Shown here piece by piece: positions 8,781 to 10,183 of a stretch of 64,000 nt of DNA. Each line of letters begins with the position of its first letter. The first letter of the stretch is position 1. A model generated the notes under the pieces. It ran no database searches. It was not told the DNA's origin and was given only the letters and a program-made list of their open reading frames with translations. Origin of the DNA: Shigella phage SF1-1; sequence record PQ571307; one strand, written 5' to 3'. The translations under genes were made by a program, and so were the position numbers.

Positions 8781-9347
8781 ATGAAAGTAGAAAAAACAAA
8801 AATTGAAGGTGCGGTAATTATCAAACCAGACGTTTATAAAGATGATCGTGGTTTCTTTTTAGAAACATACAATGAACAAAAATACGAAGATATCATTGGT
8901 AAACAAACTTTCGTTCAAGATAATATGTCTAAATCAAACTTCGGTGTTTTACGAGGAATGCACTTTCAAACAAATAATCCGCAAGGTAAGCTTGTTCGTT
9001 GTGTAAGTGGGGAAGTATTGGATTTCGCTGTAGATTTACGTAAAGATAGCCCAACTTACGGTGCTTGGGACGGTGTTGTTCTTCGTGCACGGCACCATAC
9101 GCAGTTTTGGCTTCCTCCTGGTTTGGCACATGGTTTTATAGTTTTGAGTATGGATGCGATCTTTGAATACAAATGCACAACTCCATACGACCCTTCTAGT
9201 GAACAAAGTTTACGTTGGGATGATCCTGACATAGGGATCGATTGGGGCTTCGATATGATTTTTGACGAAGGTTTTAAACCTATTTTATCAACAAAAGATG
9301 CAATGGCTAAATCTTTTCAACAGTTACGTAGCGAGGGTGTATGCTAA
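8781..9347 (+). CDS. rmlC: dTDP-4-dehydrorhamnose 3,5-epimerase
   Basis: Cupin RmlC hallmarks: DDRGFF, VQDNMSKS, GVLRGMHFQ, colinear with bacterial RfbC. Confidence 0.8.
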   Translation: MKVEKTKIEGAVIIKPDVYKDDRGFFLETYNEQKYEDIIGKQTFVQDNMSKSNFGVLRGMHFQTNNPQGKLVRCVSGEVLDFAVDLRKDSPTYGAWDGVVLRARHHTQFWLPPGLAHGFIVLSMDAIFEYKCTTPYDPSSEQSLRWDDPDIGIDWGFDMIFDEGFKPILSTKDAMAKSFQQLRSEGVC

Positions 9348-10183
9348 CATATCTGGTATTGGGTGGTAATGGACAACTGGGACAAGCTTTACGTAAAGTG
9401 GTTCCTTCAAATGTATCTTTAATTTATCCTAAAGAACGTGTAGATATTACAAATTTTGAAGCTGTGCGAAACGCTATTCTTGAAGATTATGTAGATGGTG
9501 TTATTAATTGCGCCGCTTATACGGCTGTAGATAAAGCCGAACAAGATTTTGCTACTGCCTTGGCTGTTAATGCTTATGGCCCTGCAAATATTGCGGCAGT
9601 GTGCAGCAAACTTAAAATTGATTTTGTGCATATTTCCACAGACTATATTTTTAATTATTCTCATCCTATTTTTGAAGATACTACACCTAACCCAATAAAC
9701 AATTATGGGTATACGAAAGAACTTGGTGAAAAAATGGTGCGAGGAGTTAATCCAAATGCATATATTATTCGAACAGCCTCGGTATATAGCGAATTTGGAA
9801 ATAACTTTCTAAAAACCATGTTGTCTCGCTATAATGATGGACAACGTGATTTTATTATTGTTGCTGATCAGTTCTCTTGTCCAACATATGCTCCAGATTT
9901 AGCAGAAGTTATTTTTGAAGTATTAAAAACAGGTTGGTCAAGGTCTGTTAAGACTTACCATTTTGCAGGAAGCCATTTTATTTCTTGGGCGGAGTTTGCG
10001 GAAAAGATCTTGACACAGATGCCAGAACCTGTTAAGATATCGGCGGTATCAGCTTCAACCTATAATGCTCCAGCAGCACGTCCGGTGAAGTCACAACTAG
10101 TAACCAGTCACTATCTTACAAAATCAGATTTAAATAAAGGTATTGAACAGTCTTTAGCAGTATTACTTAATAAGGAGAGGTAA
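9341..10183 (+). CDS. rmlD: dTDP-4-dehydrorhamnose reductase
   Basis: N-terminal Rossmann GGNGQLG and ISTDYIF motif typical of RmlD; overlaps rmlC stop. Confidence 0.75.
   Translation: MLTYLVLGGNGQLGQALRKVVPSNVSLIYPKERVDITNFEAVRNAILEDYVDGVINCAAYTAVDKAEQDFATALAVNAYGPANIAAVCSKLKIDFVHISTDYIFNYSHPIFEDTTPNPINNYGYTKELGEKMVRGVNPNAYIIRTASVYSEFGNNFLKTMLSRYNDGQRDFIIVADQFSCPTYAPDLAEVIFEVLKTGWSRSVKTYHFAGSHFISWAEFAEKILTQMPEPVKISAVSASTYNAPAARPVKSQLVTSHYLTKSDLNKGIEQSLAVLLNKER

Follow-up and report, generated by a model that had tools for sequence, protein, structure and literature searches.

The rmlC-rmlD gene pair of Shigella phage SF1-1, a two-gene form of the rhamnose operon of phAPEC8-like phages, and its possible host substrate

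The closest described systems are the rml genes of phAPEC8-like phages, in which the arrangement analysed here is already known and routinely annotated, and the bacterial RmlABCD pathway, encoded in the rfb/rml genes of O-antigen clusters, of which RmlC and RmlD catalyse the standard last two steps. For one of these phages, ESCO37, the absence of rmlA and rmlB has already been published. Here, we describe the rmlC-rmlD pair found at positions 8781 to 10183 of a 64,000-nucleotide stretch of Shigella phage SF1-1 (sequence record PQ571307), hereafter called the window. To the known arrangement, our analysis adds evidence that rmlC-rmlD are the indispensable, selected core of the operon, that rmlB-rmlA have been lost recurrently, and that the loss may be linked to the host pathway for enterobacterial common antigen (ECA).

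The rmlC and rmlD genes and the selection acting on them

The two genes of the pair are the following.

8781-9347, plus strand: rmlC, dTDP-4-dehydrorhamnose 3,5-epimerase (dTDP, deoxythymidine diphosphate), 188 residues; evidence from PF00908, TIGR01221, motifs and the ratio of non-synonymous to synonymous polymorphism (pN/pS)
9341-10183, plus strand: rmlD, dTDP-4-dehydrorhamnose reductase, 280 residues; evidence from PF04321, TIGR01214, motifs and pN/pS

Both reading frames are intact and share seven nucleotides, ATGCTAA (9341-9347), as read directly in the sequence. An earlier note on this DNA, made from the letters alone, had described an rmlC-rmlD pair with a 7-nucleotide overlap, located between ribonucleotide reductase and glutaredoxin genes, and both the profile matches and the direct reading agree with that description.

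The family matches of both proteins are far beyond chance. RmlC aligns with positions 1-167 of the 168-position PF00908 profile (E = 7.8e-67; 224.6 bits, cutoff 27) and scores 225.3 bits against the NCBIfam rmlC equivalog TIGR01221, the cutoff of which is 155.75. Comparison with solved RmlC structures (E = 7e-56) revealed that the RGxHFQ, PQGKLVR and YKCT motifs are kept, and the catalytic motifs RGMHFQ (His61), QGKLVR (Lys70) and EYKCT (Tyr130) align with those of the solved enzymes. The C-terminal Asp partner falls just past the aligned segment; an LSTKD motif is present, which is probably equivalent to that of the Salmonella enzyme.

RmlD matches PF04321 (E = 5.7e-74; 249.2 bits, cutoff 27) and passes the rmlD equivalog TIGR01214 narrowly (239.4 bits, cutoff 224.05). 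The protein falls below the enterobacterial model NF007440 (118 versus 308 bits), which fits a non-enterobacterial lineage. RmlD features a GGNGQLG sequence (residues 8-14) of the GxxGxxG nucleotide-binding type, as well as STDY (99-102) and YGYTK (122-126) sequences, which hold the Thr/Tyr/Lys triad of short-chain dehydrogenases. These motifs are invariant in 15 sequences of the phage clade, which are 50-83% identical and include one from a two-gene Klebsiella-phage lineage. Judged from the sequence, both genes are very probably functional.

Purifying selection acts on both genes, in two-gene and four-gene genomes alike. Among 16 alleles from the genus Phapecoctavirus, the pN/pS ratio is 0.03 for rmlC and 0.17 for rmlD. 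For rmlC, the ratio is 0.032 in two-gene genomes and 0.026 in four-gene genomes; the corresponding values for rmlD are 0.173 and 0.160. The two-gene group includes L011 (IMG/VR), a four-gene contig cut inside rmlA, which slightly contaminates the group but leaves the result unaffected. The similarity of the values in the two forms shows that selection was not relaxed after the loss of rmlB-rmlA. Thus, rmlC-rmlD are the selected core of an operon, the first two steps of which have been repeatedly lost.

The deletion junction and the history of the operon

The window belongs to Phapecoctavirus (phAPEC8-like phages, Stephanstirmvirinae), and the region is 98-99% identical to many isolates. No identical record was found in the collection searched, in which the best match to the window is 97.8-98.8% identical. 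Two forms of the operon occur among relatives: ESCO25 and others carry rmlB-rmlA-rmlC-rmlD, and Mt1B1_P17, ESCO37 and others carry rmlC-rmlD only. Searches by tblastn (E <= 0.01) with RmlA and RmlB of a four-gene relative found neither in the 64-kb window nor in the complete genome of iGC_PHA_EC001, a two-gene relative that is about 98% identical. The statement of the earlier note that rmlA and rmlB are missing is therefore borne out for the window; for the rest of the source genome, absence is inferred from this one complete relative.

In the two-gene form, 1876 bp are gone exactly between the upstream open reading frame (ORF) and rmlC, and the junction maps as follows.

8772-8780, plus strand: deletion junction with a GGAGA ribosome-binding site, where rmlB-rmlA are missing (alignment to four-gene relatives)

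Of 63 Phapecoctavirus records, 21 (17 distinct phages) match without interruption a query that crosses the junction; the other 42 carry rmlA and rmlB at the locus, and their match to the window starts only at position 8772. The junction-spanning query was used for this fraction, as hit counts for RmlA and RmlC are confounded by phiWec-type phages that share rmlBA. The junction is identical in all nine other two-gene genomes compared (ten sequences with the window). The break point lies within GGAGA, the ribosome-binding site located 5' of rmlB, and GGAGA also occurs 5' of rmlC in two four-gene genomes, PNJ1809-36 and SKA64. The junction thus reads as the signature of one clean deletion between two ribosome-binding sites.

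Several records with unexpected host names fall among these relatives. Records labelled as Campylobacter phages (B15, A145, C3 and others; e.g., MG065650.1 and MG065645.1) share 98-99% identity with Phapecoctavirus or Justusliebigvirus genomes of E. coli, as do the records named Acinetobacter phage ABPW7 and Pseudomonas phage PsgM04F. To judge from these identities, the host labels look doubtful.

Among phage-encoded homologs, RmlD identity grades from 98% to about 50%, and many of the genes lie on contigs some 113-157 kb long; bacterial proteins are at most 44% identical. The phage RmlC is 50% identical to RfbC of E. coli K-12, and RmlD is 31% identical to RfbD. Because identities are graded among phages and low to host and bacterial proteins, the comparison points to rml genes that have long been held by phages. 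Recent capture from the host was also considered and is rejected on the values of 50% and 31%.

Relatives with 54-66% RmlD identity retain the order nrdA-nrdB-[rmlB-rmlA]-rmlC-rmlD-grx-lysozyme-phoH. The four-gene form is found in Justusliebigvirus (phi92-like phages), in L008, L009 and L012, in phiWec179 and in L019, the most distant locus sampled. Its occurrence in most lineages, including the most distant, suggests that the four-gene form is ancestral. Klebsiella phage KP2025 and locus L010 carry rmlC-rmlD only, with RmlD proteins 83-84% identical to the one encoded at the four-gene locus L008. Locus L015 carries rmlA-rmlC-rmlD without rmlB. In Escherichia phage Eryne (L102:3086-4396), the place of rmlB-rmlA is taken by a single ORF of 436 residues, in which nothing but RmlA residues 159-288 can be detected; this looks like an in-frame internal deletion that destroyed both enzymes, with rmlC and rmlD left intact. 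On this comparison, rmlB or rmlA has been lost or broken in at least four independent events (Phapecoctavirus, KP2025/L010, L015 and Eryne). No loss of rmlC or rmlD was found among the related genomes and contigs examined, which include about 131 phage records.

The rmlBA module has a history of its own in some genomes. L012 (3571-6843) and phiWec179 (L104) are mosaic: in L012, identity to the Phapecoctavirus proteins is 92% for RmlB and 97% for RmlA but only 66% for the adjoining RmlC and RmlD. Because RmlB and RmlA are far closer than their neighbours, the module has evidently been exchanged recently between phage lineages by recombination. In L008 (5678-6004), rmlC was called as a product of 108 residues; tblastn revealed an intact full-length frame, and the sister contig L009 encodes 189 residues, so that the short version is probably a matter of start-site calling or of sequencing.

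Proposed host substrate, candidate users of the product and competing explanations

In the ECA pathway of the host, RffH and RffG make dTDP-glucose and dTDP-4-keto-6-deoxy-D-glucose, the latter being the substrate of RmlC, and are at least partly redundant with RmlA and RmlB. ECA has been reported as the primary receptor of these phages. Hence, a host able to adsorb them should run a pathway that yields the RmlC substrate, and a susceptible host would supply it. By adding the last two steps, the phage could then obtain dTDP-rhamnose whatever the host. Among 5426 complete E. coli genomes, 5309 carry the rffH gene of K-12 at an identity of at least 95%, and a homolog of rfbC (rmlC) was detected by blastn in 2199 (about 40%), a count that is a lower bound set by the sensitivity of blastn. 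The phage RmlA is 63% identical to RffH of K-12.

The best explanation as a whole, to which we assign a probability of roughly 0.6, is that an old rmlB-rmlA-rmlC-rmlD operon of the phAPEC8/phi92 type was reduced to a functional rmlC-rmlD pair that works on a host substrate. Host RffH and RffG, and in some strains also RmlA and RmlB, would supply dTDP-4-keto-6-deoxy-D-glucose, which RmlC and RmlD would convert to dTDP-L-rhamnose or possibly to a close 6-deoxy-L-hexose isomer. As hosts make the intermediate, rmlB and rmlA would be dispensable and were repeatedly lost; this loss can be explained by the ECA pathway, through which the reported receptor is built as well. The last two steps, in turn, would be kept because rmlC is not detectable in most E. 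coli, so that the phage has to bring them itself. The product would most likely be the sugar donor for a conserved cluster of four phage glycosyltransferases (GT1 to GT4) encoded outside the window, and these may decorate an acceptor other than DNA, such as a virion protein or a glycoconjugate of the host envelope. The enzyme activity, the tie to the glycosyltransferases and the acceptor are the parts of the explanation that we infer. The idea raised in the earlier note, that the phage boosts a host pathway at its final steps, fits this explanation, since hosts make dTDP-4-keto-6-deoxy-D-glucose via RffH and RffG.

The product is probably used by the glycosyltransferase cluster. The earlier note had proposed searching the rest of the genome for such an enzyme, and four of them were found in near-identical genomes, about 70 kb from the rml locus. 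In the complete two-gene genome of iGC_PHA_EC001, the four genes are adjacent, and the genes for primase/helicase and DNA polymerase lie next to them. Two of the enzymes, GT1 and GT2, have a GT-B fold and are paralogous (41% identity); the other two, GT3 and GT4, are small and GT-A-like. From the general mechanism of glycosyltransferases, we assume that the GT-A members (inverting, GT2-like) are the likelier rhamnosyltransferases. GT1, GT3 and GT4 each occur in about 131-136 phage records, essentially the same set in which RmlC is found, and all three are present in 64 of 64 records of Phapecoctavirus-level identity, together with rmlCD and with or without rmlBA. This co-occurrence fits, weakly, a relationship between donor and user.

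Neither solved structures nor NCBIfam yielded a meaningful match when searched by sequence with GT1, GT3 and GT4. In fold searches, GT4-type enzymes rank above T4 alpha- and beta-glucosyltransferase among the structural neighbours of GT1, and those of GT3 include GlfT2, polypeptide GalNAc-transferase, the Listeria rhamnosyltransferase RmlT, PBCV-1 A64R and Mimivirus R699. The GT3 family is small, and no named bacterial member of it was found; remote homologs of GT3 (identity near 26%, E about 1e-8) occur in 327 Mycobacterium phage records. Capsid glycosylation is reported for the Cluster F mycobacteriophages Che8 and Rita.

A tellurite-resistance-type gene set adjoins the glycosyltransferases of iGC_PHA_EC001 (L004:41846-49454 and L005:255-1731). 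It comprises TerD, a vWA TerF-like protein, TelA, an SprT-like protein, TerC and a ComF-like phosphoribosyltransferase, as well as a weak, sub-threshold match to HAD hydrolases.

Several observations weigh against the proposed supply of rhamnose to the phage glycosyltransferases. RmlD passes its equivalog model by a narrow margin, and the product could be 6-deoxy-L-talose, since the stereochemistry at C4 cannot be fixed from sequence. The rfbC count, being a lower bound, may understate the number of hosts that own the enzyme. The glycosyltransferase cluster is distant from the rml locus, and its co-occurrence with rmlCD is confined to one phage subfamily and is not phylogenetically independent. 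Moreover, the folds identified are generic, GT-B for GT1 and GT-A for GT3, and are silent on donor and acceptor.

Other explanations have to be set against this one. The pair might be a decaying remnant, useless since the loss of rmlB-rmlA and drifting, as half of the operon is gone and the related phage Eryne carries a visibly broken rmlB-rmlA. However, the frames and catalytic motifs are intact, pN/pS values are as low as in four-gene genomes, the two-gene state also persists in the separate, diverged Klebsiella-phage lineage, and rmlC and rmlD are retained in every relative examined; decay is therefore close to refuted. The pair might instead exert metabolic control, either because dTDP-L-rhamnose inhibits host RmlA, and perhaps RffH, thereby saving deoxythymidine triphosphate (dTTP), or because drainage of the substrate starves ECA synthesis. 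Allosteric inhibition of RmlA by dTDP-L-rhamnose has been published, as have effects of thymidylyltransferase activity on dTTP pools and growth in E. coli; the RmlC substrate is also that of WecE in the synthesis of ECA, the reported receptor; and the pair shares one gene string with ribonucleotide reductase, ThyX-like and glutaredoxin genes. Yet the majority form, apparently ancestral, adds rmlA and rmlB, which consume dTTP and raise the intermediate, the four glycosyltransferases of the same genomes are left unexplained, and ECA already on the surface would presumably not vanish within one lytic cycle. We regard metabolic control as unlikely, albeit as the strongest of these competitors. A boost to host O-antigen or lipopolysaccharide synthesis, in which the host's own glycosyltransferases would use the rhamnose, is in keeping with the usual role of the two enzymes in a pathway serving O-antigens and with the presence of an rfbC homolog in about 40% of E. 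coli genomes. Nevertheless, two-gene and four-gene phages have been isolated on K-12 MG1655, which has rough lipopolysaccharide only (wbbL is disrupted), hosts that use rhamnose already have both genes, the phage versions are only distantly related to the host ones, and a gain for a lytic phage is not evident to us. This possibility appears quite improbable, marginally more so than the glycosylation of DNA considered next.

According to the latter explanation, dTDP-rhamnose is put on a modified base of the phage DNA, as in the glucosyl-hydroxymethylcytosine of T4, in order to evade host nucleases. DNA glycosylation was proposed for these phages in 2020 and again in 2024, and the earlier note had raised the possibility, from the location of the pair among nucleotide-metabolism genes, that the product feeds a DNA or nucleotide sugar modification. 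The rml genes do lie in an early region rich in such genes, and the glycosyltransferase genes are close to replication genes. GT3 features a short, weak match to the TET-associated family PF20691 (E = 1e-3; 19.5 bits, cutoff 27.5) and a match, over 39 residues only, to phrog_842, a beta-glucosyl-hydroxymethylcytosine alpha-glucosyltransferase (E = 8e-6); in addition, the gene resembling thymidylate synthase encodes a ThyX that is unusually divergent. However, the argument from location is weak, since the same gene string holds lysozyme, PhoH, HslV-like peptidase and methyltransferase genes. In the pathways described in the literature consulted, either a ThyA homolog or a TET-type dioxygenase produces the hydroxylated base that accepts the sugar. 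A non-exhaustive scan found no ThyA-type hydroxymethylase or hydroxylase and no TET/5mYOX dioxygenase: the annotation of iGC_PHA_EC001 (279 features) lists none, and Pfam, in two batches, identified none among 20 of its unannotated proteins (163-370 residues). The divergent ThyX-like protein is the only thymidylate-synthase-like gene product found, as evidenced by the annotation of a relative and by Pfam. Moreover, phi92-like relatives, which have the full pathway and the same glycosyltransferases, are reported to be exceptionally susceptible to restriction-modification systems, and GT1 resembles generic GT4-type enzymes more than it does either T4 glucosyltransferase. The literature yielded no nucleoside analysis for this phage group, these genera go unmentioned in a study of DNA modification in the Durham phage collection, and the terms rhamnose, deoxyhexose and dTDP were not found in the DNA-glycosylation literature checked. 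The proposal that the product feeds DNA modification is thus unsupported, with no acceptor-base enzyme found and sister phages sensitive to restriction, and we consider it improbable. A variant, in which a rhamnose glycan sits on sparse or sequence-specific bases without ThyA or TET enzymes, for instance via the ThyX-like protein, is a long shot. If true, such sparse modification would give no protection from classical restriction enzymes, hence would have been overlooked, and would be the first rhamnosylated DNA.

The thymidylate-synthase-like ORF itself (2473-3471, plus strand) encodes 332 residues, is weakly ThyX-like and has no sequence match in the PDB. Its ortholog in a relative matches part of the PF02511 profile (E = 5e-8) and scores 31 bits against TIGR02170, the cutoff of which is 87.9.

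Should the explanation based on phage glycosyltransferases hold and the product build a glycan coat on the virion, it could affect the recognition by antibodies of therapy-relevant phages that are now in use against E. coli.

Surrounding genes and comparison with known systems

The genes flanking the pair are the following.

4248-6488, plus strand: nrdA (ORFs, relatives' annotation)
6530-6868, plus strand: variable small ORF (ORFs, relatives' annotation)
6855-7943, plus strand: nrdB (ORFs, relatives' annotation)
10183-10443, plus strand: glutaredoxin ORF (PF00462, E = 1.8e-9)

Upstream of rmlC, nrdA, the small ORF and nrdB are followed by four small ORFs. Downstream, the stop codon of rmlD and the start codon of glutaredoxin overlap by one base (TAATG), so that the glutaredoxin ORF opens with the final base of the stop codon. 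The slot between nrdA and nrdB is a variable cassette: its 112-residue ORF in the window is 93% identical to the allele of IMG/VR locus L012 and 51% identical to that of ESCO25, the ORF is absent in Mt1B1_P17, and an HNH endonuclease gene is found in the slot in iGC_PHA_EC001. In locus L010, nrdA contains an intein with a LAGLIDADG domain. A 50-residue ORF (8149-8301, plus strand) that is kept in close relatives features two CxxC pairs and sub-threshold matches to DnaJ-type and other zinc fingers.

Between positions 3400 and 14200, promoter-like sites (39, versus 33 +/- 6.4 in shuffled sequence) and terminator-like sites (5 versus 5.8) are not enriched. A transcription unit bounded by a promoter-like site (3488-3515) and a terminator-like hairpin (13136-13151) can be drawn tentatively. 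No tRNA genes were found in the 64-kb window.

As in the glucosyl-hydroxymethylcytosine system of T4, the TET-associated systems and the arabinosyl-5-hydroxycytosine system of RB69, phage glycosyltransferases are encoded near replication genes, as seen in the genomes of relatives. In contrast to those systems, no enzyme making an acceptor base was found here, and relatives are sensitive to restriction.

Giant viruses use rhamnose pathways for virion glycans. The phages analysed here resemble viruses that glycosylate their virions (Che8 and Cluster F, chloroviruses, Mimivirus) in encoding both sugar-nucleotide enzymes and glycosyltransferases, the latter seen in relatives. They differ from them in that the likeness goes no further than a generic GT-A fold, reports of a glycosylated virion protein are lacking for this phage group, and the donor would be dTDP-linked rather than linked to uridine diphosphate or guanosine diphosphate.

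The similarity to the bacterial RmlABCD system lies in the equivalog models passed, in the catalytic motifs kept and in the four-gene relatives, which have all steps. In contrast to that system, only steps 3 and 4 are encoded here, the proteins belong to a phage-specific clade (RmlD being at most 44% identical to bacterial proteins and 31% identical to RfbD of K-12), and the genes are part of an early phage gene string rather than of a polysaccharide cluster.

Closest of all are ESCO37, Mt1B1_P17, nepoznato and ZCKP1, with which the window shares the locus, the flanking genes, about 98% nucleotide identity and the junction. Compared with the published two-gene phage ESCO37, the window, although not identical to any record, represents another isolate of the known two-gene form.

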